DNA of 64,000 nt, from contig CANKOY010000017.1 in the NCBI GenBank assembly GCA_947484275.1, positions 1 through 64,000 of the forward strand. Direction: 5' to 3'. Below the pieces are notes generated by a model. That model was given only the letters and a program-made list of their open reading frames with translations, was not told the DNA's origin and did not search any database. This document shows, piece after piece, positions 1-58,421 of this stretch. How positions within the stretch are numbered: position 1 is the first letter of the stretch; each line of letters opens with the position of its first letter. A program made the translations under genes and the position numbers. This stretch comes from Planctomycetota bacterium (GTDB taxonomy: Bacteria > Planctomycetota > UBA1135 > GCA-002686595).

Positions 1-200
1 CGAAACTACGTTCGCGGGCGAACCAACAAGGAGCCAAGTAGGACGCCTGCAATGGCGCTGGGCGCGCAGGAGCACCAGTGGAGCGTGCGGCGGCTCCTCA
101 AGTGGAGGGTGGATCTACTCACTTAGGGCCCAGCCATGGGGGGCAGTATTCTGGGGGGGCGCGTTCGCAACTCCGCCCTCCCCCATCTCCCGGAACCGAC

Positions 201-650
201 ATGCTCCGATCACTACAGCTGCTCGCTGCCCCCGCACTCCTCGTGACTCTCGGCTTGTCCACCCAGGACCCTAGGGAGGAGGATCGAATTTTGGTGAATC
301 GTGCCGCACTCGATTACGTCGAGGCGTTCACCGAGGGCAAACCGGAGCTGCTGGATCGGAGCGTCGACAAGAAGCTGGACAAGCTTGGCTTCTACCGCGC
401 GCCGGACGCGACGGAGTACACGCTCATGACAATGAGCCTGGCCCAAGCGAAGGAACTGGCGGCAGGCCTCAAAGCCAGTGGCCAGGTTCCCGACGGGGCT
501 ACGCACAAGATCGCGATTCTCGATTTGATGGACAAGACTGCTGCAGTCAAGGTTGAGGCGTTTTGGGGGATCGATTACATGCATCTCATCAAGGAACGAG
601 ATGCGTGGAAAATCCGTCAGGTGGTGTGGCAGAGCGCGCCGCCGAAGTGA
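201..650 (+). CDS. Secreted NTF2-like/SnoaL-like (putative lumazine-binding fold) protein. The start was moved to an internal ATG that precedes a signal-peptide-like segment.
   Basis: The ORF 78..650 has a hydrophobic stretch MLRSLQLLAAPALLVTLGLS beginning at the ATG at 201. The downstream sequence resembles NTF2-like small proteins. Assignment rests on fold-level resemblance only. Confidence 0.4.
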   Translation: MLRSLQLLAAPALLVTLGLSTQDPREEDRILVNRAALDYVEAFTEGKPELLDRSVDKKLDKLGFYRAPDATEYTLMTMSLAQAKELAAGLKASGQVPDGATHKIAILDLMDKTAAVKVEAFWGIDYMHLIKERDAWKIRQVVWQSAPPK

Positions 651-674
651 ATCGGATGGGTGCACTAGACGCGC

Positions 675-3341
675 TCAGCCGTTCTCACACGTCAGGCCAG
701 CTTCTAGGATGCGATTCTGCAGCGTGTCCGTGTCCCAGCCGAGGTAGAGCGCCGCGCGCGTCTTGTTCCAGGTGCCCTTGCCGGTAGCGGTGCACTTCAG
801 GGCCGAGATCAGCAAGTCCTTGTCGGGATGACGCGACGGCAGACGGGCAAGGGCCTCGTGGCCGAAACGCTCAGCAAGTCCCATAAACATGCCCGCGTCC
901 ACGGCGCGGTCCACGGGGCATAGGACCAACCGATACATCCACTGGGCGAGTTCGCGCACGTTGCCCGGCCACGGCTGGCGCCAAAGAAAAGCCAGAGCAG
1001 AGTCCTCGAGCATCGGTGTACGCAGTCCTGAATGGGCCGCGAAGTGGTGCGCGAACAGGCGCGCCAGGGGCGCGATTTCCGCGCGGCGCTTGGCCAAGGG
1101 TTCGACGCGCAATTCGATGCGTGACAACAACCAGGCCAACTCGGAGGTCAGTGTGGAGTCTTCCGCGGCAGTGGAAATCGAGCGGTCTAGAACAAAATAC
1201 AACCGTCCCGGAGCGTCGCCATTTTCTTCGATGAGCTGAGCCACTCGCGCCTGACGATCCCGAGGCTGATCCAGGAGGCCCTCCACGATCCAGCCGCCGT
1301 CAGCGCCACGCGTTTCCAGGGTGCGCTCGAAATCCGCAGCAGCGCACGAAAGTCGCCGCAGGACACCGGCGCGGCTTGGGCCCTCGAAGTGCAGCCTGCG
1401 CGCCAGAATGCGGCGCCCCGATCCAAAGGGCCCGCTGATCGCGACAGGGCCGCGCGCGCTGGCGAGCGCGACCAGTTGTTCCGGCCCTAACACCGCGACG
1501 GCGGACGCAGGCTCGACGTGCGCATCGTGACCAAAGCGCTGTAGGTGCCAAGTTCGGAATTGCGCAGCGGCGAGCTCTGGTGCGAGCACGTCGGCGCGCG
1601 CACGAAAGCGCTTTAAGTCCGCGACTGAGAAATCACCCCGGCGCGCGGACTCCACCAGCCAGACCCCCAAGACACGGCCGCGCAATCCCACGGGAATCGC
1701 AACGCCGCTCAGTGCTGCGGGATGAAGCGCGAGACTCCGCTCCGCTTCGCTGATCGTCACCGGGAGGCCCGTGGAAATGGCCCGGGAAATGGCGCGGCCT
1801 GCACTAGTCGCGCAGGAGTCAGCCCCAGACGCGAGGTCGGGCGTAGTCGAGAAGTCGCTGGACTCGAGGCCCTCGCCGCCCCGGGCCACTAGCAAGGCGC
1901 CGCCCTCGCGCACGTCGAAGGCCGACCAGCGCCGTTGACTGGTCTTCAGCGACAAGCCTTCGACAAAGTCGCGCAGGACGGCAGCCGCGAAGGAGGCCTC
2001 GTCCGCAAGTTGGGTGGGTATGACGGCAAGGGAGCGACCTGCACGCGGGGCGAGGTGAATCGACCATTCAACTGCAAGTCGCGCCAGGGCGGCGCGCGAG
2101 GGCACGAGGTGGTGCTCGAACTCCAAGCGCAGCCACCCGCGCAGATCACCGTCCACGTCGGACACAGGCACGACGGCCAGGGCGAGTATTGACTGCGGAT
2201 CGATTGCGGTTCGCGCTGGCGCGCACTGCGCCAGTGCGCCGAAGTGCTCGATGCGCGCGCGAGCGTCGCCGAGCATCTGGCACTCGGGTTCGCGCGCATC
2301 CGAGGCGGCTCCATCGCGACCGGTGAGCCACGCACTCAGGCGACCGCCGTGGGCCGGCGCATGGGCGCTGGCCACGATTTGCGCGCGGCCTGGCCCAACC
2401 AATGACCAAGCCGAAAACAGCGCGGCGCCGTGGCTCTTGCGGGCGCCGTCGGCTCGCTGTTCAAGCGCCGCACCGTCAAGCTCAACTCCAGGCGGGCATA
2501 GGGGCTCCCCGGAACTCTCCTGACCTGGAAACCAGATCCCCACAGACGGAAGCCGGGCGCGCAACTCCCCCAGCGAGCGTGGCAGCCGCGCTCGAGCCTG
2601 TGAACTTGAGGCAGGAAAGCCTGCCGAGTTCACGGCTTCACCGGACAGTGCCGCGGTCCAGGTCCACAAGCACTTCAGCCGCGGATCGGCCGGGAGGCGC
2701 GCCGAGGCAGACTCCAGTCGCGCGCGCGCCGCGCGGACCGCACCGCGATCCAAGAGACACTCGACGAGACCAGCAAGTGCAAAATTGGCAAGGGCAGAAT
2801 TGCGTACGTCTCCGCGCGACTTGCCTTGCTGCGAGAGCAGGCGTTCGAAGGCCGCGGCGCCTGCCTGCGCACCTCGCGAGGCACGTTCACAGCGCGCGCG
2901 CCACAGTTCCACGCGCGGCACGCTGGCGCCAACAGACTCGAGTCCCGCCACAAGTCGCTGTGCGACTTGCTCGGCGCGTTCGCCGGGGAGCGGCACGTGG
3001 GCCAGTGGGCACGAATCAGTGCGCTCCTCCTCGAGGTCGCTCCAGGCCTGCTGCAGTTCGCCCGTGCATTCGCCGAAGTGCGCGAAGGAGTCAGCACCCA
3101 CGAGCGCGTAGAGGTGATGACGCAGGAGCTCCTCGTGGACGCGAATCCGACGATCAGCGGCGGAGCGATCCAACTCGTTCCTCGCACGCGGCAAGCTGAC
3201 GTGAACGCTGGCGCTCCCGTGGCTGCGCGCATCGTCGGAGAGCAGCCGCAGGAAGGTCGTCACGCGCTGGGCCCGCTGCCAGAATGCAGGCGCGGCATCA
3301 GGCAGCAACAGCTCCAGCGCATCGGCAGATCGCTCGTTCAT
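675..3341 (-). CDS. Large GAF-domain transcriptional regulator of the sigma-54 enhancer-binding-protein (NtrC/Fis) family, with degenerate AAA+ motifs and a C-terminal Fis-type helix-turn-helix.
   Basis: 888 aa ORF. The C-terminus carries the WPGNVRELAQ signature and a Fis-type HTH (ALYLGWDTDTLQNRILEAGL). The central AAA+ region reads GPFGSGRR where the Walker A GxxGxGK(E/T) is expected. The GAFTGA loop is absent, and ADGGWIVEGLL sits where GGTLFLDEI is expected. GAF-like repeats occupy the N-terminus. Confidence 0.75.
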   Translation of the reverse strand: MNERSADALELLLPDAAPAFWQRAQRVTTFLRLLSDDARSHGSASVHVSLPRARNELDRSAADRRIRVHEELLRHHLYALVGADSFAHFGECTGELQQAWSDLEEERTDSCPLAHVPLPGERAEQVAQRLVAGLESVGASVPRVELWRARCERASRGAQAGAAAFERLLSQQGKSRGDVRNSALANFALAGLVECLLDRGAVRAARARLESASARLPADPRLKCLWTWTAALSGEAVNSAGFPASSSQARARLPRSLGELRARLPSVGIWFPGQESSGEPLCPPGVELDGAALEQRADGARKSHGAALFSAWSLVGPGRAQIVASAHAPAHGGRLSAWLTGRDGAASDAREPECQMLGDARARIEHFGALAQCAPARTAIDPQSILALAVVPVSDVDGDLRGWLRLEFEHHLVPSRAALARLAVEWSIHLAPRAGRSLAVIPTQLADEASFAAAVLRDFVEGLSLKTSQRRWSAFDVREGGALLVARGGEGLESSDFSTTPDLASGADSCATSAGRAISRAISTGLPVTISEAERSLALHPAALSGVAIPVGLRGRVLGVWLVESARRGDFSVADLKRFRARADVLAPELAAAQFRTWHLQRFGHDAHVEPASAVAVLGPEQLVALASARGPVAISGPFGSGRRILARRLHFEGPSRAGVLRRLSCAAADFERTLETRGADGGWIVEGLLDQPRDRQARVAQLIEENGDAPGRLYFVLDRSISTAAEDSTLTSELAWLLSRIELRVEPLAKRRAEIAPLARLFAHHFAAHSGLRTPMLEDSALAFLWRQPWPGNVRELAQWMYRLVLCPVDRAVDAGMFMGLAERFGHEALARLPSRHPDKDLLISALKCTATGKGTWNKTRAALYLGWDTDTLQNRILEAGLTCENG

Positions 3342-3370
3342 CGCAGTCCTCGCGGTTGTTGCTCAGGAAC

Positions 3371-3847
3371 TCAGCACAAGTTGCCGGACAGCGGCAGGGC
3401 GCGAAATTGCTGGGCCGCATCGCGCAATGTGGCGAGACCGCAGGCGGCGCGCGGGAGTCGTCCGGCCAGCTTGCGTCCATGGGCGAGCAGCGACGAGGGG
3501 AAAAGGTGCGTACTCGCGGCGCACTGCAGTTCCTCGCGCAGCAACGCGCCCATCTCGCGGCGCCCAGCAGGCAGGTCCTCGCCACGCTCGAGTGCGTCTG
3601 CGGCCTGATCGAACAGCACGGCCACAGCGCGCGCGATCAGGCCCGCAAGTTCGAGCTCCGCTCGCTCCAGCGAGCAGATCGCCGGAGGTGCGCCCGTCGC
3701 ACTGGAGCAACGCGGCTCTGCCGCAGGACCCAGGCGCGCGAAAATGTGCGCGGAGTCCGCCAGTGCGCGCTCGAGTTCTGCTCCCGAGCAGCGCGAGAGT
3801 TCGAACAGCAGTCGAGCGAAAGGGGTGCTTGTGTTTCGGGGGGTCAT
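3371..3847 (-). CDS. Hypothetical protein, translationally coupled to the upstream sigma-like gene.
   Basis: ATG at 3847..3845 overlaps the TGA stop (3846..3844) of the upstream minus-strand ORF, giving an ATGA overlap. A GGAGC ribosome-binding-site-like sequence lies 5 nt upstream. No recognisable domain. It sits directly upstream of the GAF/EBP-like regulator. Confidence 0.35.
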   Translation of the reverse strand: MTPRNTSTPFARLLFELSRCSGAELERALADSAHIFARLGPAAEPRCSSATGAPPAICSLERAELELAGLIARAVAVLFDQAADALERGEDLPAGRREMGALLREELQCAASTHLFPSSLLAHGRKLAGRLPRAACGLATLRDAAQQFRALPLSGNLC

Positions 3848-4440
3848 GAGGGCTCCTGTCCTTGTGTGCACTCGGGTTCCCGCGCCTCGGTGCTGGCGCA
3901 GACTCCTGACGTCGATTCCGCTCCAAGTCGATTCTCCTGTTCCACTTCAACCGCGGCGACCTGCGCCCCGGGAAGTTGCCCAGCTGCGATCAACACAGCC
4001 TCGAGGCCGTGGCGCGCGCGACGGGCGATTTCGACTCCGCTGACGCCCTGCGCTTTTGCGAGTTCTTCCAATGAACGGCCGGCGATCACCAGTCCGTAGA
4101 ACGCCTGTCGGTCGGGTTCTCGAAGAAGATTGTGAGCCAGGCAAACTCGCCCCATGGCTGTGGGCTCCAGACCGAGAGGTCTCGCCAATTCCACGAAGGC
4201 CGCGAGGATCTCGGCATCGGGCGCGCTGCCACGGCGCTCGGCGGCCGCGTCCTCGCGCAGCAACTCGAAGAGCGCCAAATCGACCAGTTCTGCCAACCAC
4301 GTTTCCAACGGCGGATTGCCGCGGTAGCGGAGGGCCCGGCGCGCGCAGTGTGCCAGGGCACGCAGGTGAACTCGGTCAGCGTCGAACAGGTAGGCCCGTT
4401 CCGTCAAGCGCCTGGAGACGACGACGCGCATGTCGAGGGG
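3844..4440 (-). CDS. Sigma-70 region-4 domain protein (ECF sigma-factor-like). The start is uncertain, since the ORF stays open up to 4821.
   Basis: The C-terminal half contains an HTH that resembles sigma-70 region 4 (RQAFYGLVIAGRSLEELAKAQGVSGVEIARRARHGLEAVL). There is an internal Met at MRVVVSR. Confidence 0.4.
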   Translation of the reverse strand, partial: PLDMRVVVSRRLTERAYLFDADRVHLRALAHCARRALRYRGNPPLETWLAELVDLALFELLREDAAAERRGSAPDAEILAAFVELARPLGLEPTAMGRVCLAHNLLREPDRQAFYGLVIAGRSLEELAKAQGVSGVEIARRARHGLEAVLIAAGQLPGAQVAAVEVEQENRLGAESTSGVCASTEAREPECTQGQEPS

Positions 4441-4939
4441 ATCACCCTGGAGCATCCGCGCCAGAACTTCACGCGGGCTCTGACCGCCGAGGACAGCGCG
4501 CCAGTGCTGGCGTGCGCGAGGCGCATCCTCCGGTTCATAGCCAGTTTGCGAGGGGCTGTTCTCGCGGAGTCGGCAGGTCTCTTCGCTGCTCACGGGACGA
4601 TCCCTCTGAATGGCGCCGGGTGGAACAGAGCCGGAGGAACTCCGGCCGAGCCGCGCGGGGTTCCTCGCGCTTCTCCGCCGCAGTTTAGAGACAGCTCTAA
4701 GAACAGGGGTGGTCGATTCGAGTCGGCCACGCGCGCGGGGCTCCAGAGCGGGAACCGAGCCCGTGGTGGCACGAAATCCCCCCATTAGGTGCACGGGGTC
4801 TATCCCGTAGCACCGGCGCAACTGTGGAGAACTGCAGTGGAACTCCGCTCGCCGCTTCGGCGATGCGGGCCCGGCAATTGGCGCTCCCGCCCATCAGGGG
4901 GGCAAGGGGGGGCAGCGTTTGGTCAGCGGCGCAGCGAAC

Positions 4940-6607
4940 TCACGCGCCCTTCGCGGGCTTCTCAGGTTTCGCAGGGGTCTCATGGACTGCGCCCGCAGCG
5001 TCTTCGGCTGGCGCGGCCGCGGCGGGCGTGTCCTGCGTGGTCAACTTGCCGAAGTATGGCGGCAGTTCGACGCCTCCGATCGTGCGCATCACATCCATCA
5101 AGGGCGGAACGGCGGAGCCGAGGTTCTTCAGAAAACCGGCAGTGCCGCCGCCGTCCTTACCACCGTCCCAGACCGTGATCTTGTCGAACTTGATGTTCGA
5201 AATTGCTTTGGAGGCGGAGTCCGCCAGGTGATCGAGGTGCTCGAGCATCATCAACTGGAACGCTGCGTTCGCGTTGCCCGTTCCCTTGATGATCTCGCGC
5301 AAACCCTCGCCCTTCTTGGCCAGGATCTCGTACTCCCCGCGCGCCTGGGCCTCCAGCTTGGCGAAGATCGCCTTGGCCTCGCCCTCGGCTTCGATCGCCG
5401 TGGCGTTCGCGCGTGCCTGGGCCTCCAAGTTGAGCTTGGCCGCAGCCGCCTCGGCCTCGACAACGATACGCGCCTTTTGCGCGCGCGCGGGTGCTTCGAA
5501 CATGGCGCGCTGCTCGGCTTCGATCTGCTTGGATTTCGCCTCGGCGGCCAGGGTTTGGGCGCGGTACTGCGCTGCGAGCACTTCGGCTTCGGCTTCGCGC
5601 TTGCGGCGCTCGCCGACCGCGTAGGCCTCGGCCTGACGCACCTGCAATTCAGCCTCGGACTCGGCCACCGCGGCCTTCGACTTGTTCTCGCCGGTGACCG
5701 CTTCGGCATTGGCGCGCGCGACTTCGATGCGCATCGCGCGTTCGGCCTCCTTGACCGTGGCCTCGCGCTGATATTCGGCGGATTGCTCGCCGATTTGACG
5801 CTCTTTCATCAAGTCCGCGACGCGCACGGCCATCTCGCGCTCGGCTGTTTTCGTCCCTACTTCCTGATCCTTGACCGCCTCGGAAACCTGGATCGCGCGC
5901 TCGCGATCGGCCTTGGCGACGCCGATGGCGCCAAGTTTGACCTGCTCGGCCACGTCCACCTGAGCCTTTTGGATCGCTTCGCTGGCAGCCTTCTTGCCGA
6001 TGGCCTCGATGTAGCCGGACTCGTCGGTGATGTCGGTGATGTTGACGTTGATCAGCACCAGACCGATTTTCTCCAGCTCAGGCTCGAGATTGTGCTGGAT
6101 GCTCTTCAGGAACCCGTCGCGGTCCTTGTTGATCGCTTCGATCGGCATCGACGCGATCACCTGGCGCAGCTGGCCGAAGATGATGTCCATGGCCTGGTTC
6201 TTGATCTGATCGGTCGTCAGGCCCAGCAGACGAATGGCCGCGTTCTGCATTGCGGCGGGCTCGGTGCCGATCGCTACCGTGAAGTACGACGGCACGTTGA
6301 CGCGGATGTTCTCCGCGGAGAGGGCACCCTTCAGCGGCACCTCGATCTGAATCGGATCCAGGCTGAGGAATTCGTACTCCTGCACCAGGGGCCAAACGAA
6401 GGCCCCACCGCCGTGGAGGCAGCGCGACGACTGGCCGCCGCCGACCTTGCCGTAGATCACCAGCACGCGGTTCGAGGGGCAGCGCTTGTAGCGGCGCACA
6501 AGCACGAGCACGAGGCTCAAGCCGAAAAGCAGGACCGCGATCGCGATCACCACCAACCAGAAGTCGCGCGGAGGGGTGTCTTGAAGCAGCAAGAACGAGC
6601 TTGTCAT
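4940..6607 (-). CDS. Flotillin family protein (SPFH/band-7 domain, YqiK/FloT-like).
   Basis: 555 aa. N-terminal TM helix. SPFH domain. Long Ala/Glu/Gln/Arg-rich flotillin coiled-coil region (EAERAMRIEVARANAEAV...). Characteristic C-terminal tail. Confidence 0.9.
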   Translation of the reverse strand: MTSSFLLLQDTPPRDFWLVVIAIAVLLFGLSLVLVLVRRYKRCPSNRVLVIYGKVGGGQSSRCLHGGGAFVWPLVQEYEFLSLDPIQIEVPLKGALSAENIRVNVPSYFTVAIGTEPAAMQNAAIRLLGLTTDQIKNQAMDIIFGQLRQVIASMPIEAINKDRDGFLKSIQHNLEPELEKIGLVLINVNITDITDESGYIEAIGKKAASEAIQKAQVDVAEQVKLGAIGVAKADRERAIQVSEAVKDQEVGTKTAEREMAVRVADLMKERQIGEQSAEYQREATVKEAERAMRIEVARANAEAVTGENKSKAAVAESEAELQVRQAEAYAVGERRKREAEAEVLAAQYRAQTLAAEAKSKQIEAEQRAMFEAPARAQKARIVVEAEAAAAKLNLEAQARANATAIEAEGEAKAIFAKLEAQARGEYEILAKKGEGLREIIKGTGNANAAFQLMMLEHLDHLADSASKAISNIKFDKITVWDGGKDGGGTAGFLKNLGSAVPPLMDVMRTIGGVELPPYFGKLTTQDTPAAAAPAEDAAGAVHETPAKPEKPAKGA

Positions 6608-6652
6608 GGGAGTCGCTTGGGTTCGCTTGGGATCTCGGACTCGGGTGGAAAC

Positions 6653-7267
6653 TCAGATGGGGTCAACAAGCAGCGTATTGCCCGCCTGGACGGCGGTGAC
6701 TTTGCACAGCGAACCGGTTTTCAATTCCGGCCCCGCGGTGATCGCTCGGTACTGCATCGTGCGGCCCTGGACGACGACCGTGACTGCGCCCTGTCCGGAC
6801 TTTTCGGTGGGAATCGTGAGGTAGACGCGGCCTTCCACGCCCACAGTGTTCTTGACGTCGACCGTGCCCGAGGAGCGCAGCTTGTCGAACTGCATCAGGG
6901 CGAGGCGCGTCAACACGAACGCCATCGAGCCCACGCCGAAGGCGACGATCACGGAAATCAGGCCAGTGGTTCCTTGGGAGACCGCAACCATTCCACCCAG
7001 GCCGAAGAACGTGAGGAACGCCACCACGGCGCGAAAGGACAACCAGCCGCCTGCCCCGCCGTCGTGACTGACGTCGCCGTCAGACCCGACCTCCGTGTCC
7101 ACGTCGTGACCGACGCCGAACAAGGAAAGCAGCACCTGCAACAGCAGGACCACTCCGCCAATGATCGAGGCACCTAGGTACAGCCACTCGATAGCCGAGT
7201 CCGCCTTCAACCAGGGAAAGCCGGAGAAGGCCCCGATGTATGCGAGGGCGAGTTGGGACATGTTCAT
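6653..7267 (-). CDS. NfeD-like/YqiJ membrane protein (flotillin-associated, OB-fold C-terminus).
   Basis: 204 aa with several TM helices and a C-terminal soluble domain. It lies immediately upstream of, and in the same orientation as, the flotillin gene, which is the classic yqiJ-yqiK arrangement. Confidence 0.8.
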   Translation of the reverse strand: MNMSQLALAYIGAFSGFPWLKADSAIEWLYLGASIIGGVVLLLQVLLSLFGVGHDVDTEVGSDGDVSHDGGAGGWLSFRAVVAFLTFFGLGGMVAVSQGTTGLISVIVAFGVGSMAFVLTRLALMQFDKLRSSGTVDVKNTVGVEGRVYLTIPTEKSGQGAVTVVVQGRTMQYRAITAGPELKTGSLCKVTAVQAGNTLLVDPI

Positions 7268-7474
7268 ACGGTGGATGTCTCGTGGATCGACGCTGTCGCG
7301 CGCGTGCGAGTTCGCCGAGCGCGCGTCATACGTCGATGACCCGAAGGGAATTCAGCCCAGAACGGGCAGCGAGCCTACGCAACCGCTGGGCAGGGGGCCA
7401 GCGTTCCCTTGCCGTGCTTGTGGTCGCAGGTGCGCAGGCTAGGATCACCGCCCTCGCCACCGGCAAGACCACGC

Positions 7475-8266
7475 ATGGAATCAAAAGACACTCCGCTTCA
7501 ATTGCTCACTGGCCGCACCGGCATCGTTTTCGGTGTGGCGAACAAGCGCTCGCTGGCCTGGGCCTGCACCAAGTCGCTGTCCCAGTCCGGCATGCGGTTG
7601 GCTCTGACCTACGCGAGCGAGCGCATGGAGCGAACGGTGCGCGAGCTCGCCGCGGATCTGCCGGGCGCGCTCGTGCTGCCCTGCGACGTGACCAAGTCGG
7701 AGGAAGTCGAGGCGGTGTTCGCCAAGCTGAAGGCCGAATTCGGTTTCCTCGACACGATCGTCCATGCCATTGCCTACGCGAAGCGCGAGGAACTCGAAGG
7801 CGATTTCTATCACACGTCGAAGGCCGGCTACATGATCGCCCACGAGGTGTCGTGCTACTCGCTGACCGAGATCGCGCGCTGCGCACTGCCGTTGATGGAG
7901 AATCGCCAGGGTTCGATCGTGACGCTGAGCTATATCGGCGGCGAGCGCGTGGTGAAGAACTACAACGTGATGGGCATCGCCAAAGCAGCTCTCGAAGCCA
8001 GCGTGCGCTACTTGGCACACGACCTTGGACCGCGGGGGATTCGCGTCAACGCGATTAGCGCGGGGCCCGTGCGCACGCTGTCCGCCTCGGGCGTCTCCGG
8101 TTTCAGCGAGGTGCTCGACCACATCGCCACCAACGCGCCCCTGCGACGCAACATTACCGCCGAGGAAGTCGGCGACGCCTGTCTGTTCCTCGCCAGCAAT
8201 TTGTCGCGCGGAATCACCGGCTCCACGATCTACGTGGACGCTGGATACAACATTATGGGCGTCTGA
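7475..8266 (+). CDS. fabI: Enoyl-[acyl-carrier-protein] reductase (NADH), FabI.
   Basis: GIVFGVANKRSLAW N-terminus. Catalytic Y-x6-K context (SYIGGERVVKNYNVMGIAKAALE). C-terminal ITGSTIYVDAGYNIMG typical of FabI. ATG at 7475. Confidence 0.9.
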   Translation: MESKDTPLQLLTGRTGIVFGVANKRSLAWACTKSLSQSGMRLALTYASERMERTVRELAADLPGALVLPCDVTKSEEVEAVFAKLKAEFGFLDTIVHAIAYAKREELEGDFYHTSKAGYMIAHEVSCYSLTEIARCALPLMENRQGSIVTLSYIGGERVVKNYNVMGIAKAALEASVRYLAHDLGPRGIRVNAISAGPVRTLSASGVSGFSEVLDHIATNAPLRRNITAEEVGDACLFLASNLSRGITGSTIYVDAGYNIMGV

Positions 8267-45431: not shown

Positions 45432-45440
45432 TGCTAGACT
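45432..45440 (+). promoter_or_regulatory. Extended -10-like element TGcTAGACT, 6 nt upstream of the GTG start of the SGNH hydrolase gene (apparently leaderless).
   Basis: Same TGcTAG[GA][AC]T motif as upstream of the UDG and 58876 genes. The spacing puts the predicted transcription start at the start codon. Confidence 0.3.
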
Positions 45441-51606: not shown

Positions 51607-53028
51607 CTAGGTGGTGGCCTGGGGCGCGATTTCAGCCGCGGCATTCCCGTGGGGATGAACGAGCAACTCGAGCTGCGTGGCAGCGGACTCGATTTCATGG
51701 CCGGCCTCCTCCATCTTCGTATTCAGGAAGTTGAAGGGGATCAGAGCCGTGATCGCGATGCCCAGGCCGAACGCGGTCGCGATCAGCGCTTCGGCAATCC
51801 CGCCGGTGATCGCTCCGGGCGCGCTGAGCTCGCCGCCGATCAAGGCGAAGGAACCCATCATGCCCACCACCGTGCCCAACAGCCCGAGCAACGGTGCCAG
51901 GGTGATCACCGTGTCGAGAATCGGAATTCCGCGCCGGAAGCGCTTGAGCTCCTGAGCCTGGGCGAAGAACAGCGCGTTGGCCAGGGATTGCTCCTGGTGT
52001 CCGAGCGCGTAGCCAAGGGCACGCACGAGGTAGAACTTGCTCTCCCTGCCGATGCGAATCGCGGACTCGATATCGCCTCGGTTGACCGCGGCAAAGAAGC
52101 TCTCCAGTGCCGCTGGATCGCGCTTGATTCGTTCGCGCATCAGGAAGATGACGCGCTCGAGCACCGTGCCCAGGGCGAGGATCGATGCCAATAGCAGCGG
52201 CCACATGATCGGCCCGCCCTTCTCGAAGATGTGGAACAAGTTCGTGCGCTGCACCAGGGCCTTGAGCGCGCCGCCGCGCGACGGATCGAGCGGCATGAAC
52301 CCCTCTCCGCTGTCCACGAGCGACAGCAGCCCTGCCTGCATCTCACCTTCGAGCGGACGAATCAGCGGACGGCTGGAACCGGACTGGGGCACGACGAGGC
52401 CCGCGGCGCCGCCGCCGTCGGAGCGAAAAAGGGCCACCGGACCGAGCAGGGCGAACTGACCGCGGGACACCGCACCCAGCAAGTCGACTCCGACTCCCGG
52501 GAACCGCATGCCGCCGACCGCATCGAACAACCGTTGCAGCGACAGATTGGCCAGCTCGAGCTGGATCGCGAACTTCTGCGGCATGGAAAGCGCGCTGTTC
52601 TCACCGGCCTGCTTGGCCCGGTCGATCGCCTCCTGGCAGTACTGCAATTCGCAGACGTTGATCTTGGACTCGAACGTGCGCGCGTACTCGTCCAGCAGGT
52701 TGCCCACATAGGTGAACTCGTCCTGGCGCGACTTGATCTCCGAGCGCAGTCCGGGAAGATCCAGGTTGCCCTGATCCATCAGGCGCGTGACGCGCTCGTG
52801 CTCGCGGCGCAATCGAGTCAGCTGCTCCTCGGCGACAGTCAGGTCCTGGGCCAGGGGCAGTTTCTCCCCGGCAATTTTCTCGCGCAGTTGATTGAGCTCA
52901 AGAATGCTGATGTCGAGCTGGGCCTTGGCGGACCCCGCGAGCTGATCGATGGTGCCTTCAGCCGAACTTTGGGCAGCGGCGGGCAGTGCGAGCAGCAGAG
53001 CCCAAAGTGTGATCGTCAAGAGTTTCAT
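51607..53028 (-). CDS. MotA/TolQ/ExbB-family proton-channel protein with a approximately 250 aa N-terminal periplasmic extension (TtpC-like).
   Basis: Signal peptide (MKLLTITLWALLLALPAAAQS). Long coiled-coil periplasmic region. C-terminal 3-TM MotA_ExbB domain (LGLLGTVVGMMGSF...GIAEALIATAFGLGIAI). Confidence 0.85.
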   Translation of the reverse strand: MKLLTITLWALLLALPAAAQSSAEGTIDQLAGSAKAQLDISILELNQLREKIAGEKLPLAQDLTVAEEQLTRLRREHERVTRLMDQGNLDLPGLRSEIKSRQDEFTYVGNLLDEYARTFESKINVCELQYCQEAIDRAKQAGENSALSMPQKFAIQLELANLSLQRLFDAVGGMRFPGVGVDLLGAVSRGQFALLGPVALFRSDGGGAAGLVVPQSGSSRPLIRPLEGEMQAGLLSLVDSGEGFMPLDPSRGGALKALVQRTNLFHIFEKGGPIMWPLLLASILALGTVLERVIFLMRERIKRDPAALESFFAAVNRGDIESAIRIGRESKFYLVRALGYALGHQEQSLANALFFAQAQELKRFRRGIPILDTVITLAPLLGLLGTVVGMMGSFALIGGELSAPGAITGGIAEALIATAFGLGIAITALIPFNFLNTKMEEAGHEIESAATQLELLVHPHGNAAAEIAPQATT

Positions 53029-53921
53029 TGGATCCTCACCGGCAACGGCACGAAGGCCGGAGTTTGCTTGCCCTGGAGGATTTCCAGTGCGTTCAAAACG
53101 TCCTTGGCCAGGGCAGCCGAGGGTTTCCACGCCCAGCCATCAGCAGTGGGCGTGCCGACGCCAGCTTCGCCCGAGGCGCTGACGTAGTAGCCCTGGGCCA
53201 GGCCCACGTACAGCGCACGGACTTCCGAAGGCCGCCCATTGGCCAGTTCACGCACTTCGTAGCTGACCGTGATCTCGCCGTTCTGCTTGTTGACCTCATT
53301 GAGGATGCCGAGCACGTTTTGAAAACGCTCCGCAACACTGACCCGCGACTCGGCCGTGTCCGCGGGGACGCGCTGGGTCAAGGGCGAGAGCTTCCCTTGC
53401 ATCGGCTCAGGCAATTGCCGAACCAGGCGCAGGATCCTCGACTCCATCTCGCCCACGGACACGGCGAGATTCGAGCCATCGGCCTTGAGAAGGTCGTTCT
53501 CGGCAACCAACTCCGCGCGCTTCTTGTCCGCCTCGGCCACGCTGGCCTCGGCCTGCTTGATCTTCTCCTCGAGGAGCGCGACCTCGCGCTGGACCAGTTC
53601 CAGTCGGCTGACCAGGATCTCGCGACCCTGCTGCCAGTCATTGCGTTCGTGCGAGATGATCTGCTGGGTTTCAATCCACTTGGTCAGGGTCATGCGCGTT
53701 TCCTCCAGCGAGGGTGCAGATCGCGGATCGTCGCCGCTCACCGCTGACTCGCCAGGCGCCCCAATCCCCGGCGTGGGCCCGGCGAAGCTGCCGATCGAAA
53801 CGACCGAGCAGGCGGCGGCTCCGGTGAGGAACCGGCGCAATCCCCCTCGCGGGCGCGCTGCCTTGGCGCGGCGCGGCGGGCGTTCTTGGGGTGAACAGGA
53901 GTTCGTCATTTGCTTATTCAT
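53025..53921 (-). CDS. DUF3450-family periplasmic protein (TtpB-like) of the TonB2-type cluster.
   Basis: Coiled-coil-rich secreted protein of about 300 aa, positioned directly upstream of the long ExbB-like gene as in Vibrio ttpB-ttpC. There is an ATGA overlap with the next gene. Confidence 0.55.
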   Translation of the reverse strand: MNKQMTNSCSPQERPPRRAKAARPRGGLRRFLTGAAACSVVSIGSFAGPTPGIGAPGESAVSGDDPRSAPSLEETRMTLTKWIETQQIISHERNDWQQGREILVSRLELVQREVALLEEKIKQAEASVAEADKKRAELVAENDLLKADGSNLAVSVGEMESRILRLVRQLPEPMQGKLSPLTQRVPADTAESRVSVAERFQNVLGILNEVNKQNGEITVSYEVRELANGRPSEVRALYVGLAQGYYVSASGEAGVGTPTADGWAWKPSAALAKDVLNALEILQGKQTPAFVPLPVRIQ

Positions 53922-53974: not shown

Positions 53975-56900
53975 TCAAAGTGCGATGGTCGCGGTGAGGC
54001 TCAGCGAGTATTCGATTCCCCTGGAGTAGGAGCTCTTTTCCACGTCTCCGCCGATGTAGGGCGAGCGATAGACCTCCTCGATCGAAGGGTCGGTGAGGTT
54101 CTTGGCCTGGAACTGCAGCTTGAAGTACTTGCCAAGACGCTGTGAGACGCTCAGGTTCAGAGTGTCGTACCCAAGCGCGTAGGCGTTCGGCACGAAGTTG
54201 CCCAGGGCCTGCCCCGCGCCGGCCACCAGCGTGTCGCCTTGGATGGTGTAGAACAGCGCAATCTGCGTGTCAGTCTTCGCTATGTCGTAGGTGACGAAGA
54301 AGTTGCAGAGGTACTCAGGCGCGTTGGTCATGTCGCGCGAGCGCATCGGCGCCTGGATTCCCGGCAAATTGAAAGCGGCGGCTTCCGCGGCCGGCAGGAT
54401 CACTTCAGATTCGATGAGCGTGCCGTTGGCGCCGACCGTCAAGCCAGCGAAGGAATCCGAGAGTACGCCGATGTCCTGGCGGAGTTCCAATTCGAAGCCA
54501 GTGAGCTCGCCCTTGGGATAGTTGATCGGCGTGGTGTATGTGAAGCCGGCAAGTCGCTGCACGTACTCGATCGGATCGCGAATGTCCTTCTTGAACCAGG
54601 AGCACGATACGAGCCCGCCTTCATAGGGCACGTAGTCCGCGCGCAAGTCGTAGTTGTCGAGCGCGCTCATTTCCAGCGTCGGCTCGCCGATGAAGATCGG
54701 GCCGCCCGCGTATTCCTGCTGCAGGATTGGCGTGAGTTCCTTGAACGTCTGGCGCGCGACGGTCTGACTGAAGGAGCTGCGCAGGGTCCAACGCTCCGCT
54801 GGTTCGTAAACCACACCGATCGACGGCAGCAGGTCGTCCTGTCGGAAGGAAACGTCGCCATCGCCCTGCTGCATGGACACCGGGGCCGTGGCGCCGGGCG
54901 GAATCCAGGTCGCGCTGGATTCCGGATCGTTGGCGATGTCGAGCCTCGTGGATTCGGCGCGCGCGCCTCCGATGACGCTCCAGCGCTTCGAAAGCGGCAT
55001 GTCGACCATGGCATAGAGCGCCTTGATGTCCTGCGTGGCCCGATAGTCGACGTCGAACAGTGACTCGGTAATCGGATGGCTCTCGGCCGGAAAGCTCGCG
55101 CTCCAGAACTCGTCGAACTCCCCTACGAAAAACGCGCCTGCGTCGCCGAAGTTGCTGAATGTGTCCTGATCGAACCCACGTTTCACTGAGTCGTCGAACA
55201 GGCCGACCTTCACGTAGCCGGAGTCTGCGGTCCATTGCTCGAACGGGAAATTGAGATTGATCGAGTACTGGTCGCTCTCCTCGTTCACCGACTTCCATAT
55301 CCGCTGAAAGTTCCCCAGGTTGAAATTTGCAGCCGGGAAGTACGGAAACCACGTAGCCGGCGTCGTGGAGGGCGGCGTGAATGGCGGCACGCCCGGATCA
55401 AAAGACGTGGCGTGGAAGAGTGCGCCGAACACCCGCTTGTCGGGCTGATACATGTCGGCCGTCGAATGGGACGCGGTCCAGCTCAGCTCCGGCGCCTTGA
55501 ACCGAAAGCTGGATCCGACGACATAGTCCTCGACGTCGAGGCTGTGCCTGCCCCCCAGCTGCAGCGTGCTCGTCGAGCGTTCGGTGTACTCGAGGGTTTC
55601 GAGGCGCAGGTGCGGCGCCGCATCGAGTTGATTGGGTTGGTTGCCGTTCCCGGTCGGGTTGTTTGGGTCGTAGCCAGGGAAAAAATATTCCTTGCCGCGG
55701 GTGTCTTGCGCGAGCGTCGCTGTGTCGCGCGCGTTGCGTGTGTACAGGTAGGACAGCCCGAGGAAGTTGCGCTCGGTCTCGATGCCGAGGCTGGCGAGAC
55801 CGCCCCAGGTCACTGACTGTGAACCTTGGACCACGTCGAAGAGCGAGGTCTTGAAGTTGCCATCGCCCGGCGTGCCCTGGTTCGTCTGCGGCACCATTCC
55901 CGCGCCCGGCGTCTCGACCCAGAGCGAATCGTCGCGACCGTCGTCGTGGAAGGAGCTCGAGCGCTCATAGAACAGGCTGGCGATGCCGCCGACCCTCACG
56001 CCGTTGTCGAAGGTACGTGCGTTGCCGGCTGTGAAGGACCATTTGTGGTCTGTGGGAGCTGTCCCTTCTGAAACTCCCGCCGCACCGTCCCAGTTCGAAC
56101 CCAGGTTCTGGAGCTGCTTGTCCCGACCGCCATCGTCGAGACCGAAGAAACTCAGGCCGCCGCCGCGGTACGTCAGGAAATCGTCGCGACCGGTGAGCCC
56201 GGGGCTGTAGGTGTACTGGGTCTTCAGCTGGAAAATCGGCTCGTCCGGCAGGCCCTTCAGGATCACGTTCACTGCGCCGCCTGAGGCATCGCCCTGCTGA
56301 TCTGGCGTGAAGGTCTTGCTGACCTGAATGCTGCTGATTACGGCGGTCGGGAACTGGTCGAGCTCCACGGCGCGCTTGTCCTCGTCCGCCGAGGGCAGGC
56401 GCACGCCGTTCATCTGGGAGTTGACATAGCGATCCGGCAGTCCGCGGATCACTGCATACTTCCCGCCTTGCACCGAAGCTCCCGCCACGAGCTTCAGGGC
56501 GGTGGCCGCGTCCCCGGCCCCCGCGCGACTCATCAGCTCCGATCCGATGGAGTCCATGAGCGCCGGGCTTTCGAAGCGCATGCGCAGGAGCGCAGCCTCG
56601 GAGCCCGCGTCGGGCTGCAGCAGATCGCGGACGATGTACTCGTCGAGTTCGGTGAACTCACCGTTCAGTTCGACGTCTACGTCGGCCAGTTGCCCAGCCG
56701 TGACCAGCACGTCCGCGCGCACCTGGCGGTAGTAGCCCTCCTTGATGAAGATCAGGGTGTAACGGCCCGCGGGAATCTGCGGGAAGACGAAGTTGCCCTC
56801 GCCTGTGCTCAGCGCCACCTGGCCGGTCTCGACGATCGTGATGCTCGCGCCAGCGAGAGGCACGTCGAAGTCCTTGTCGCGCACCAGGCCCCGGATCGAG

Positions 56901-56983
56901 CCCGAATCCTGCTGCGCAGACGCCATGACACTGAGAGAGACCATTGCTCCGAGGGTCAGCCAGCGGGATGAACTTCCTTTCAC
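53975..56983 (-). CDS. TonB-dependent outer-membrane receptor with an N-terminal carboxypeptidase-regulatory-like domain.
   Basis: 1002 aa. Signal peptide. CarbopepD_reg-like start (SGSIRGLVRDKDFDVPLAGASITIVETGQ). Plug domain and a 22-strand barrel-sized C-terminal region rich in aromatic/Gly beta-strand signatures. Confidence 0.9.
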   Translation of the reverse strand: MKGSSSRWLTLGAMVSLSVMASAQQDSGSIRGLVRDKDFDVPLAGASITIVETGQVALSTGEGNFVFPQIPAGRYTLIFIKEGYYRQVRADVLVTAGQLADVDVELNGEFTELDEYIVRDLLQPDAGSEAALLRMRFESPALMDSIGSELMSRAGAGDAATALKLVAGASVQGGKYAVIRGLPDRYVNSQMNGVRLPSADEDKRAVELDQFPTAVISSIQVSKTFTPDQQGDASGGAVNVILKGLPDEPIFQLKTQYTYSPGLTGRDDFLTYRGGGLSFFGLDDGGRDKQLQNLGSNWDGAAGVSEGTAPTDHKWSFTAGNARTFDNGVRVGGIASLFYERSSSFHDDGRDDSLWVETPGAGMVPQTNQGTPGDGNFKTSLFDVVQGSQSVTWGGLASLGIETERNFLGLSYLYTRNARDTATLAQDTRGKEYFFPGYDPNNPTGNGNQPNQLDAAPHLRLETLEYTERSTSTLQLGGRHSLDVEDYVVGSSFRFKAPELSWTASHSTADMYQPDKRVFGALFHATSFDPGVPPFTPPSTTPATWFPYFPAANFNLGNFQRIWKSVNEESDQYSINLNFPFEQWTADSGYVKVGLFDDSVKRGFDQDTFSNFGDAGAFFVGEFDEFWSASFPAESHPITESLFDVDYRATQDIKALYAMVDMPLSKRWSVIGGARAESTRLDIANDPESSATWIPPGATAPVSMQQGDGDVSFRQDDLLPSIGVVYEPAERWTLRSSFSQTVARQTFKELTPILQQEYAGGPIFIGEPTLEMSALDNYDLRADYVPYEGGLVSCSWFKKDIRDPIEYVQRLAGFTYTTPINYPKGELTGFELELRQDIGVLSDSFAGLTVGANGTLIESEVILPAAEAAAFNLPGIQAPMRSRDMTNAPEYLCNFFVTYDIAKTDTQIALFYTIQGDTLVAGAGQALGNFVPNAYALGYDTLNLSVSQRLGKYFKLQFQAKNLTDPSIEEVYRSPYIGGDVEKSSYSRGIEYSLSLTATIAL

Positions 56984-57113: not shown

Positions 57114-58421
57114 TCACCAGGGATTCCCCAGTCCGTCGCAGACTTGAACCAGGCGCGCCCGAAGCGCTTCGTCGGGCTCCACGTTGCAGCGGGCCATCGA
57201 GCAGCAGATCGCCGCCAGGTCCTCGGCCCGCGGACGTGAGTTTGGATTCGTGAGCGACTCCTCGAGCGCCGTGCGGTAGTGCCTCAGCGCTTCGCTCTCG
57301 TGGCCAGCCAGGTGGAATGCCTCGGCCAAGGCCAAGACCACATCGCATCGATCTATGTCATTGATCTCACCGCGCCGAGTGGCGTAGGCGGCAACCTCGC
57401 GATCCAACAATTCCCGCGCGCGCACCGGGTCCCCAGCAGCGTGGCGCAGGCCAGCGAGTTTCGCGCCCATGGCGATGCCATCTTGCGCCGTCCAGGCGCC
57501 CTGATCGGCCAGACCCTCGGCCTCCGCCACAAGCTCGAGCGTCTTCACGAAGTCCTGTCGATCCGCGGCACGGCGAGCCATGTCCGCAAGGCCTTCGATC
57601 CGCACGAACAGTGGCACGCGCGTCCAACCCGCGCGCATCGTGACGCCGAGCTTCGCCGCGCGCTCGGGATCGTCGCGCAATCGATCGAACAACTCGGCGC
57701 AGATCGCCAGGGCGCTACGGGCCTGATCGAAACTGCCGTTGGCGAAGAGCTGCTCCACCAGGAGGATGTGAGAGTCCAATTCAGCTCCACTGGCAGCGCC
57801 GGCGCGCGCGGCAAGCAGTACGCCGACCTCCGCCTCGCCCAGTCCCTGCCCGTGGCGCGCCGCCTGCTCCGGCTCGCCGAGCAAAGTGTAGGCACCAGCG
57901 ATGCGCGCCAGAATGCGCTCCTTTTGCCAGGTCTGGGAGCCCGTGTCCTCCTCGGTCACGGCTCCCAGGGGAACGAGCAGATCGACGACCAGACCCAGAT
58001 AGTGCCGCGCCTTTTCGCGCTCGCCGCGCTGTGCTAGCCGGTATGCGTAGTTCGCAGTTGCCAGTCCGCGGCGCCACCCTTCCATCTTTTCGATGCAGCG
58101 CACGGCCAGCAGGTCTTCGTTCAAGGCGATGCACGTCGAGACCACACTCTCCTGGATCCGAGCGCGATTCCTTGCGTGGGGAACCGTCGGGAAGGCACTG
58201 GCCGCCGTGAAGGCGACGTCAAGAAGGAAGGCATGGGACACCGACCGGGGCCGGGCCTGAGTCGAAGGCGTGGATCGGGCCAGCGCCGATTCTGGTTTTG
58301 CAGCAGATGCATCGGAGTCGCAGGCGCAAGCGAGCGCGATCGATGCCACAAGTGCGAGGCATCGAAGCGCTGCGGCGTGGTGGCTCAGCGAAGATGCGGT
58401 GGAAGTGTGCTGGATCATCAT
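57114..58421 (-). CDS. Hypothetical alpha-helical (TPR-like) lipoprotein.
   Basis: Possible lipobox (LACACDS). Helical repeat-like content. No recognisable domain. Confidence 0.35.
   Translation of the reverse strand: MMIQHTSTASSLSHHAAALRCLALVASIALACACDSDASAAKPESALARSTPSTQARPRSVSHAFLLDVAFTAASAFPTVPHARNRARIQESVVSTCIALNEDLLAVRCIEKMEGWRRGLATANYAYRLAQRGEREKARHYLGLVVDLLVPLGAVTEEDTGSQTWQKERILARIAGAYTLLGEPEQAARHGQGLGEAEVGVLLAARAGAASGAELDSHILLVEQLFANGSFDQARSALAICAELFDRLRDDPERAAKLGVTMRAGWTRVPLFVRIEGLADMARRAADRQDFVKTLELVAEAEGLADQGAWTAQDGIAMGAKLAGLRHAAGDPVRARELLDREVAAYATRRGEINDIDRCDVVLALAEAFHLAGHESEALRHYRTALEESLTNPNSRPRAEDLAAICCSMARCNVEPDEALRARLVQVCDGLGNPW

Follow-up and report, generated by a model that had tools for sequence, protein, structure and literature searches.

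A minus-strand operon of uncultured Planctomycetota probably couples an ATPase-eroded, sigma-54-independent enhancer-binding protein to an ECF-like sigma factor

The stretch of DNA analysed here (the window) comprises 64,000 nucleotides of a Planctomycetota bacterium (contig CANKOY010000017.1 of assembly GCA_947484275.1, positions 1 to 64,000) and carries three adjacent genes, all on the minus strand: SIG, a divergent gene for a sigma-like protein of the extracytoplasmic function (ECF) type (3844..4593, 249 aa); the middle gene MID (3371..3847, 158 aa); and REG (675..3341, 888 aa, ATG at 3341), which codes for an atypical regulator resembling the enhancer-binding proteins (EBPs) of bacteria. 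The explanation that we favour, and consider probable, is that the three genes form an operon in which an atypical EBP, independent of sigma-54 and akin to NtrX and VpsR, is privately partnered with an ECF-like sigma. SIG, MID and REG are a tightly packed and deeply conserved unit, and the operon appears to be vertically inherited, cytoplasmic and confined to one lineage of uncultured Planctomycetota. An earlier note, made from the bare sequence, had already suggested a regulator with a damaged ATPase core that is transcribed together with a sigma-like partner.

Sigma-54 activators are textbook transcription factors that need ATP to open a promoter. The AlphaFold model of REG (AF2; predicted local distance difference test score, pLDDT, 86.8; predicted template modelling score, pTM, 0.81) shows, in order, a helical N-terminus, two GAF-type domains, an AAA+ core, a lid and a three-helix C-terminus, and a Foldseek search of the PDB with this model placed Brucella NtrX chains at the top (E 2e-11), followed by NtrC1, PspF, FlrC, DmpR, VpsR and FleQ. 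The N-terminal helical module, similar to tetratricopeptide repeats (TPRs), spans aa 1-270 (2532..3341; AF2 secondary structure). It is followed by a first GAF/PAS-like domain recognised by its alpha/beta topology in the model (aa 293-427, 2061..2465) and by a second GAF domain with a long linker helix (aa 451-603, 1533..1991), which is visible in the model and as a weak Pfam GAF_2 match below cut-off (aa 480-580, E 7.6e-4). REG homologues carry precomputed GAF, GAF_2 or GAF_3 matches, in line with the N-terminal GAF domains named in the earlier note. The first GAF-like domain has a near-invariant GWLxLEFEHHLVPS motif, in which no sequence departs from W403 or H410 and at least 90% of the sequences keep E407, E409 and H411. 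The Glu/His cluster that this motif contains (LEFEHHLVPS, aa 405-414, window 2100-2129, minus strand) is almost invariant throughout the family and could be a metal or ligand site.

The motifs of the AAA+ core were read by alignment to a canonical EBP returned by the same search (P0050, with GAFTDA) and to PspF. In the degenerate alpha/beta subdomain (aa 620-750, 1092..1484), Walker A reads GPFGSGRR (nt 1410-1433), with arginine in place of lysine; about 20 residues that cover ...LLESELFGxxxGAFTGA, the L1 loop, are deleted near nt 1325; and Walker B, WIVEG (nt 1278-1292), has IVEG for the canonical FLDE. Both arginine fingers are gone (LTSELAWLL for FRxDLxxRL) and sensor I has changed from ATN to VLD. 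Sensor II, WPGNVRELAQ, is kept in the EBP-type lid that follows (aa 751-816, 894..1091; WRQPWPGNVRELAQ), and the protein ends in a predicted Fis-type helix-turn-helix (HTH; aa 841-881, 699..821; NKTRAALYLGWDTDTL) that is seen as three helices in the model and as a weak HTH_8 match in Pfam (E 0.052, 13.7 bits against a 22-bit cut-off). These alignments agree with the motif changes first described (GSGRR in Walker A, a missing GAFTGA and a replaced Walker B) and with the description of a retained EBP C-terminus. The lid passes Pfam as AAA_lid_14 (7e-12, 45 bits, cut-off 27), and Sigma54_activ_2 (PF14532) passes as well (7e-7, 30 bits, cut-off 25). Sigma54_activat (PF00158), the family proposed earlier as a check, stays below its cut-off (12.9 against 20.2 bits) and is matched at profile positions 14-61 only. 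In NCBIfam, REG shows partial and far sub-threshold similarity to the NtrC, NifA, NorR and FhlA models, limited to the lid region. As judged from the alignments, the REG of the window lacks every residue needed for ATP hydrolysis and is predicted to be unable to make the canonical sigma-54 contact.

A protein search with REG returned 50 relatives, which were all, with the exception of one weak match, full-length (about 850-1,020 aa) or partial members of the same family, and every one with a taxonomic label came from a Planctomycetota metagenome-assembled genome (MAG). A scan of one genome per species gave 86 REG matches, from which 80 loci were fetched (L001-L080), nearly all of them from Planctomycetota MAGs, and the open reading frame (ORF) is intact and of full length in about 80 species. 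The earlier note had held that orthologues with intact GAFTGA and Walker motifs would reveal a misreading; in the orthologue alignments, GAFTGA occurs in none of about 125 family members, and every member examined lacks the L1 segment. The remaining motifs were counted in 81 sequences. Walker A has lysine in 58, arginine in 20 and threonine in 2; Walker B has DE in 4, DD in 16, EG in 12 and ED in 7, next to many non-acidic variants; the first arginine finger is kept in 39 sequences, the second in 54 and the sensor II arginine in 65. About half of the family retains both fingers. No sequence combines the lysine, DE and both fingers. The Walker A lysine, the Walker B acidic pair and both fingers are all lost in the REG of the window and its five closest relatives. 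The loop deletion thus appears family-wide, and the erosion of Walker motifs and fingers forms a mosaic that is complete only in the clade of the window. Mean pairwise identity is highest in the HTH (0.61), followed by the lid (0.49), and the AAA+ alpha/beta core (0.37) is among the lowest, a pattern of conservation that is reversed relative to canonical EBPs. Since the core is among the least conserved parts and the complete catalytic set is found in no sequence, ATP hydrolysis is evidently not the trait under selection in this family, as far as alignments can tell. The -24/-12 promoters that the earlier note had wanted sought were not in excess in the window, where a pattern search found 2 such sites against 2.04 expected, which is the level of chance. 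A regular-expression search of 1.2 Mb of related loci, a small sample, for an RpoN box or a GAFTGA-bearing ORF returned only wrong-frame artefacts. From the sequences we infer sigma-54 independence and DNA binding without hydrolysis, as had been suggested. On one long-read contig (L089:5505-8551), gene calling recovers no more of REG than 373 aa of its C-terminus and puts minus-strand ORFs where MID and the N-terminal part of REG would fall; this is probably the outcome of frameshift errors in the assembly, not a real truncation.

The partner protein, SIG, is recognised by its predicted structure. Pfam has no match for the SIG of the window, and Pfam and NCBIfam together give nothing usable for SIG or MID of the window; Sigma70_r4_2 matches 15 of 46 SIG homologues (best E 2.7e-5). 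The core of the AF2 model has a pLDDT above 93, and the top 40 Foldseek matches are sigma factors, mostly of the ECF type (SigH, AlgU, RpoE, SigW, SigK, CnrH), aligned over about 180 columns and over both domains. The region 4 HTH superposes on that of sigmaE at 1.5 A, and the architecture is sigma2 plus sigma4 with no sigma3, as in ECF sigmas. The earlier note had called the protein sigma-70 region-4-like; its sigma-like nature holds at the level of structure, and the limitation to region 4 does not, since sigma2 and sigma4 are both present. The SIG profile is also collinear with E. coli sigmaE (P 0.002), and the loop of the -10 pocket is equal in length in the two (FRGDSAFYTWL in SIG, YRGNPPLETWL in sigmaE). 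For promoter-specific initiation, this sigmaE-like L3 loop is suggestive only. According to the model, then, SIG has the fold of an ECF sigma. Searched against 1.84 billion representatives, its profile stays within 949 clusters at 50% identity (783 at E 1e-10 or better), and by this measure SIG is a discrete, sequence-isolated family that does not merge into the much larger ECF sigma family. Ordinary ECF sigmas encoded at one planctomycete locus (L085:3103-6048, minus strand, and L085:21475-22404, plus strand) are easily recognised by Pfam, one of them as a 981-aa protein fused to CarboxypepD_reg domains; the ease with which Pfam sees the other ECF sigmas of the same genomes underlines how far SIG has diverged.

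Of the 80 loci, 68 have SIG upstream of REG and on its strand, and 11 of the 12 exceptions are contig ends with less than 800 nt of upstream sequence, so that SIG precedes REG in 68 of the 69 loci with enough upstream DNA. Approached from the other side, three further SIG homologues on long contigs all have REG downstream. The pairing of SIG and REG is essentially obligatory. The sole relative with ample upstream DNA and no SIG or MID is L076 (L076:7472-10535), in which fabI faces REG directly. Its REG has a different N-terminus, without the D.LELLLP.A...vT.FLRLL.dDAr motif (N1) that is found in all 67 SIG-bearing loci; in the window, N1 (DALELLLPDA..RVTTFLRLLSDDAR) occupies aa 7-39 of REG, within the N-terminal module. 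Because N1 was lost together with SIG and MID, this single case points to the extreme N-terminus of REG as the part that would need SIG or MID. The N1 segment is conserved in sequence yet has low pLDDT in the model, and low pLDDT in a conserved segment is typical of a partner-binding element that folds on contact. The functional link to a sigma-like partner that had been proposed from the window alone is supported by this two-way synteny and by the joint loss in L076.

The arrangement of the genes is that of a transcription unit. The ATG of MID (3847-3845) overlaps the TGA of SIG (3846-3844) as ATGA (3847-3844), and MID and REG are separated by 29 nt containing a GAGGA Shine-Dalgarno sequence, as the earlier note had seen for the overlap and, in the form of a short gap, for the spacer. 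Consensus scans found no promoter-like or terminator-like site at the SIG-MID-REG junctions. Together with the conserved gene order, these features mean that co-transcription, which had been assumed, is supported, though not proven. The same scans found no sigma-70-type promoter in positions 1-7500 of the window. A metagenome contig of 67 kb matches the window, and three more contigs have the trio called on them; in these independent gene calls (four metagenome contigs) the three proteins again have 249, 158 and 888 aa. The start of SIG, placed near 4440 at first reading, has to be moved, as the conserved core of the protein (WRxLLGxSPREVLARxxxGDPL...) begins already at about nt 4500 and GTG 4593 is the start common to homologues and independent gene callers; GTG 4593 is therefore most likely the start codon. 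SIG, MID and REG are all free of transmembrane segments. An Rfam match to sX9, a small RNA of Xanthomonas, is below threshold (4459-4526, minus strand; 26 bits against a gathering threshold of 44), lies inside the SIG coding sequence and was taken as chance, and Rfam returned no family in the upstream region or in six loci.

MID, which entered this work as a hypothetical gene, can now be described as well: the gene stands as called, and its product is a fast-evolving, soluble, helical protein that is longer in most relatives, with TPRs in addition, and is related to the N-terminus of REG. In about 60 loci the interval between SIG and REG holds a single same-strand ORF of 121-445 aa. In 41 of 60 loci this ORF begins 4 nt before SIG ends, and in most loci it stops within a few tens of nucleotides of REG. 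In L009, L013, L026 and L049 the longest ORFs of this interval are arginine-rich, wrong-frame artefacts of high GC content. Forty-seven of the middle ORFs form one BLAST cluster, to which the MID of the window clade is joined only at the profile level (hhalign E 4e-5, motif AE-EL..hHR.E.a.LL). The family profile matches consensus TPR proteins (E 3e-19), and no anti-sigma domain was recognisable in MID with Pfam, NCBIfam or a PDB profile search; the partner to which SIG is translationally coupled is helical/TPR. The MID family aligns with aa 46-263 of REG over 211 collinear columns (hhalign E 2.4e-5, probability 76%), and reversed and block-shuffled controls gave E 0.1 or above. Taken by part, the TPR portions match with P 1e-5 and the N-terminal portions with P 0.009, and cross-pairings gave no score. 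With moderate confidence, MID is probably a free-standing paralogue of the REG N-terminal module.

Around the operon lies a conserved piece of core genome, with rlmL and fabI on one side in divergent orientation and an MptA_B-family gene and queA on the other. fabI is divergently upstream in 60 of 68 loci (7409-8266, plus strand, in the window). NfeD-like and SPFH/flotillin-like genes (4940-7267, minus strand, in the window) form an insertion that separates fabI from the operon in about 15 of the 68 related species, which belong to distant subclades and include that of the window; elsewhere fabI faces SIG directly.

In the upstream region, k-mer enrichment and anchored alignment brought out an element, M1, with the consensus CCG-N6-GAAGTGGGGAATCC-N6-TC. 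About 50 of 68 species carry it ahead of the operon, some 300-500 nt upstream of the SIG core. In 1.16 Mb of loci it matches 55 times on the plus strand, with 41 of these matches in the 1.5 kb before SIG, and 13 times on the minus strand. The copy of the window (TAATGGGGGGATTT, 4774..4787, minus strand) is a candidate operator or upstream activating sequence (UAS). An M1-like copy is found upstream of REG even in the SIG-less L076. Control of fabI by M1 was ruled out, since M1 stays with the operon where the NfeD-SPFH genes part it from fabI. A role as the -35 element of an ECF-type promoter was likewise rejected: no -10-like CGT or GTC is enriched at 14-18 nt, and downstream of M1 only the TC exactly 8 nt away is enriched. 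As the HTH of REG is equally conserved, the best reading of M1, on sequence grounds, is that of an operator or UAS for REG. A block, AGTTCTCCACAG (4822..4833, minus strand), is shared by the five closest relatives and a few distant ones and lies about 45-65 nt upstream of M1. A good copy of M1 elsewhere in the window (CGACGGACTGGGGAATCC, 57121-57138, minus strand) is found at the 3' end of an ORF of 435 aa without annotation, about 140 nt upstream of a gene for a TonB-dependent receptor (53975-56983, minus strand), further downstream of which is an ExbB-like gene (51607-53130, minus strand). This copy could be a second target or a product of chance, with about 4 loose matches expected per window.

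Between M1 and SIG, 90-155 nt downstream of M1 and about 90 nt upstream of the SIG start, is a second, strand-specific element, CCTAGACT, represented in the window by the variant CTCTAAACT (4682..4690, minus strand), which was aligned with close relatives and is a candidate promoter element. In the loci, CTAGACT occurs 28 times on the plus strand and twice on the minus strand, and its copies cluster ahead of SIG and of NfeD; that it is specific to this operon was ruled out, as it also precedes NfeD and other genes. CCTAGACT is found about 70-250 nt upstream of the start codons of several genes (e.g. L019:3969, L029:3753, L032:3986, L078:3261) and occurs a second time in the window at 45434-45440 (plus strand), and CTAG is otherwise rare in the genomes that bear it. 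Probably CCTAGACT is a general promoter element, and it may be one typical of the lineage.

In the explanation that we favour, REG would act in the manner of NtrX, VpsR or TyrR, as a ligand-gated DNA-binding factor working on RNA polymerase with a sigma of the sigma-70 family. Its GAF domains would sense a ligand, and the AAA+ core and lid would be kept as a scaffold for oligomerisation and signal relay and not as a motor. The HTH would bind M1, upstream of the candidate promoter element of the operon, so that REG would autoregulate the operon and set the level of SIG. The N-terminal module of REG and its mimic MID would be the surfaces that engage SIG, and the signal received by the GAF domains would decide whether SIG is held, released or recruited. 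The more specific proposal that SIG and REG are a dedicated sigma/activator pair, with REG as an AAA+-derived, GAF-sensing platform that would gate or recruit SIG, in contact through the N-terminal module of REG and with MID as a mimic of that module, is in our estimate unlikely.

Several observations weigh against the favoured explanation. Every mechanistic step in it is inferred from sequences or models. The sigma nature of SIG finds no backing from several sequence searches: Sigma70_r2 is found in none of 46 homologues with Pfam, the NCBIfam model TIGR02937 scores 15.2 bits against a cut-off of 42.9, a sequence-profile search of the PDB with the SIG family gave no matches, and hhalign gave no significant match to a bona fide planctomycete ECF sigma encoded at L085 (P 0.12). 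Because the assignment depends on predicted structure while these sequence tests fail, SIG could imitate a sigma without ever binding RNA polymerase. The core of REG, which to the earlier note looked inactivated, can be so described in the window clade, where all the residues are lost, but not family-wide, as 21 of 80 loci (about a quarter of the family) keep the Walker A lysine, an acidic pair and both arginine fingers, and binding or hydrolysis of ATP may persist in some members. M1 lacks a clear dyad, the symmetry that one would look for in the site of a dimeric Fis-type HTH, and this weakens its assignment to REG; the M1 copy of the window is also degenerate. About seven lineages are without the middle gene, so MID is not essential to the module. 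Finally, the short MIDs of the window clade, compared on their own with the REG N-terminus, reach P 0.078 with the same motif, and in view of this value and of the P 0.009 for the N-terminal part alone, some of the similarity between MID and REG could be generic TPR likeness.

Part of the same evidence fits a scheme in which REG would control SIG mainly after translation, with MID as a chaperone or soluble anti-sigma, the homologous N-terminal module of REG competing with MID for SIG, or for MID itself, under the control of the GAF domains, and the HTH serving autoregulation alone. The resemblance of MID to that module, the conserved N1 segment of low pLDDT and its loss along with SIG in L076 all speak for it, as does the translational coupling of SIG and MID, which resembles that of sigma/anti-sigma pairs, and there are precedents in PhyR-NepR mimicry and in the TPR-dependent ECF42 sigmas (PMC8999054). 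On the other hand, MID has no recognisable anti-sigma domain and is missing from seven lineages, and an HTH that is the most conserved domain of REG, together with a deeply conserved DNA element, argues for a central role of DNA binding. We regard this scheme as possible, if somewhat unlikely; it overlaps the favoured explanation, and the two are compatible. A looser relation, in which REG would be an ordinary atypical EBP that works with the housekeeping sigma-70 on unrelated targets and SIG would merely share its neighbourhood, draws on the conservation of the wider rlmL-fabI...MptA_B-queA region, by which the synteny could reflect vertical inheritance, and on the use of sigma-70 by all characterised atypical EBPs (PMC6158489). 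We consider it quite improbable, given that 4-nt overlaps and very short gaps have been kept in spite of REG identities of only 30-35%, that the trio is intact despite the adjacent NfeD-SPFH insertion, that SIG was not seen without REG in the three SIG homologues looked up, and that the sole SIG-less REG has a remodelled N-terminus. That REG might be a misread canonical sigma-54 activator or a decaying pseudogene is barely credible. The weak and partial NCBIfam similarities to NtrC, NifA, NorR and FhlA would suit an activator, and some sources label relatives as 'sigma 54-interacting transcriptional regulator', but those scores are all far under their cut-offs, the L1 loop is gone in every member, no member has the complete catalytic set and -24/-12-like sites are at chance level; an intact ORF in about 80 species, strongly conserved non-catalytic domains and a confident fold are not those of a pseudogene. 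By the alignments, this last reading is already contradicted.

The favoured explanation has its closest precedents in the published sigma-54-independent EBPs, among them NtrX and VpsR; the atypical EBPs (NtrX, VpsR, TyrR, HupR, Rhodobacter and Caulobacter NtrC) lack GAFTGA, act at sigma-70-type promoters and in some cases do without hydrolysis (PMC6158489; bioRxiv 10.1101/2023.06.06.543975). Like Brucella NtrX, its best structural match, and like Vibrio VpsR, E. coli TyrR, Rhodobacter HupR and NtrC and Caulobacter NtrC, REG has an EBP-type AAA+ core and lid, no GAFTGA/L1, Walker motifs of the non-consensus type often seen in this group and, by prediction, a C-terminal HTH. Those proteins, however, are mostly response regulators with a receiver domain (ACT and PAS in TyrR) and use the housekeeping sigma, whereas REG has a helical/TPR module of about 270 aa and two GAF-type domains, a far more extensive erosion of catalytic residues and a sigma-like gene of its own locked into the same operon. 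The order of GAF domain(s), AAA+ and Fis-type HTH predicted for REG is shared with FhlA, which also has two GAF domains, and with NifA and NorR. In these three, which are genuine activators of sigma-54, GAFTGA, the Walker A and B motifs and the arginine fingers are all intact; REG lacks GAFTGA, the Walker A and B consensus and the fingers.

As in ECF (group 4) sigmas with a co-transcribed regulator, SIG has a sigma2-sigma4 fold, heads its operon and is coupled in translation to a partner that is small and evolves fast. It departs from them in being missed by Sigma70_r2 and the ECF model TIGR02937, in having as its partner a soluble TPR protein with no recognisable anti-sigma domain, and in the obligatory presence of a third, EBP-derived gene. 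EBPs that control an ECF sigma are known from Pseudomonas syringae, where HrpR and HrpS act on HrpL (PMC8999054). HrpRS are active ATPases that drive the sigma-54 promoter of hrpL and are encoded apart from it, unlike REG, which is predicted to be unable to use sigma-54 and shares an operon with its sigma. In the HrpRS system, small protein antagonists, HrpV and HrpG, act on the EBP. Other ECF sigmas are regulated by the PhyR-NepR-EcfG mimic or, in ECF42, by a TPR module (PMC8999054). A free-standing copy of the REG N-terminal module suggests competition or mimicry as with PhyR, except that the PhyR mimic copies the sigma while MID would copy the REG N-terminus, and that neither a receiver domain nor a kinase takes part in SIG-MID-REG; ECF42 sigmas carry the TPR domain as a fusion, whereas MID is a separate protein. 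The main text of the ECF reclassification paper does not mention EBP, GAF or AAA neighbours, and no description of a sigma-control circuit of this type was found in the literature searched. Since SIG matches neither Sigma70_r2 nor TIGR02937, the sequence models that ordinarily serve to recognise sigmas of the sigma-70 family, surveys of ECF sigmas based on sequence may have missed it.

What is new here is the obligatory pairing of an EBP-derived, GAF-sensing and often ATPase-dead regulator with a private, sequence-orphan ECF-like sigma, together with the free-standing copy of the regulator's own N-terminal module and a natural gradient of ATPase decay that runs through the whole family. As a natural series, the REG family lets one follow the decay of the ATPase site from one lineage to the next, while all members have lost the sigma-54 loop and the lid, HTH and sensors are conserved; the family shows what the EBP scaffold is retained for once the motor is dispensable. 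The module is widespread in uncultured Planctomycetota, with about 950 SIG clusters at 50% identity, and candidate DNA and protein contacts are now defined for SIG, MID and REG. If it is real, a dedicated pair of this kind would re-create on a sigma-70 chassis the arrangement seen with sigma-54 and its EBPs, in which a private sigma has a private activator, and that arrangement would have survived the complete loss of ATP hydrolysis.

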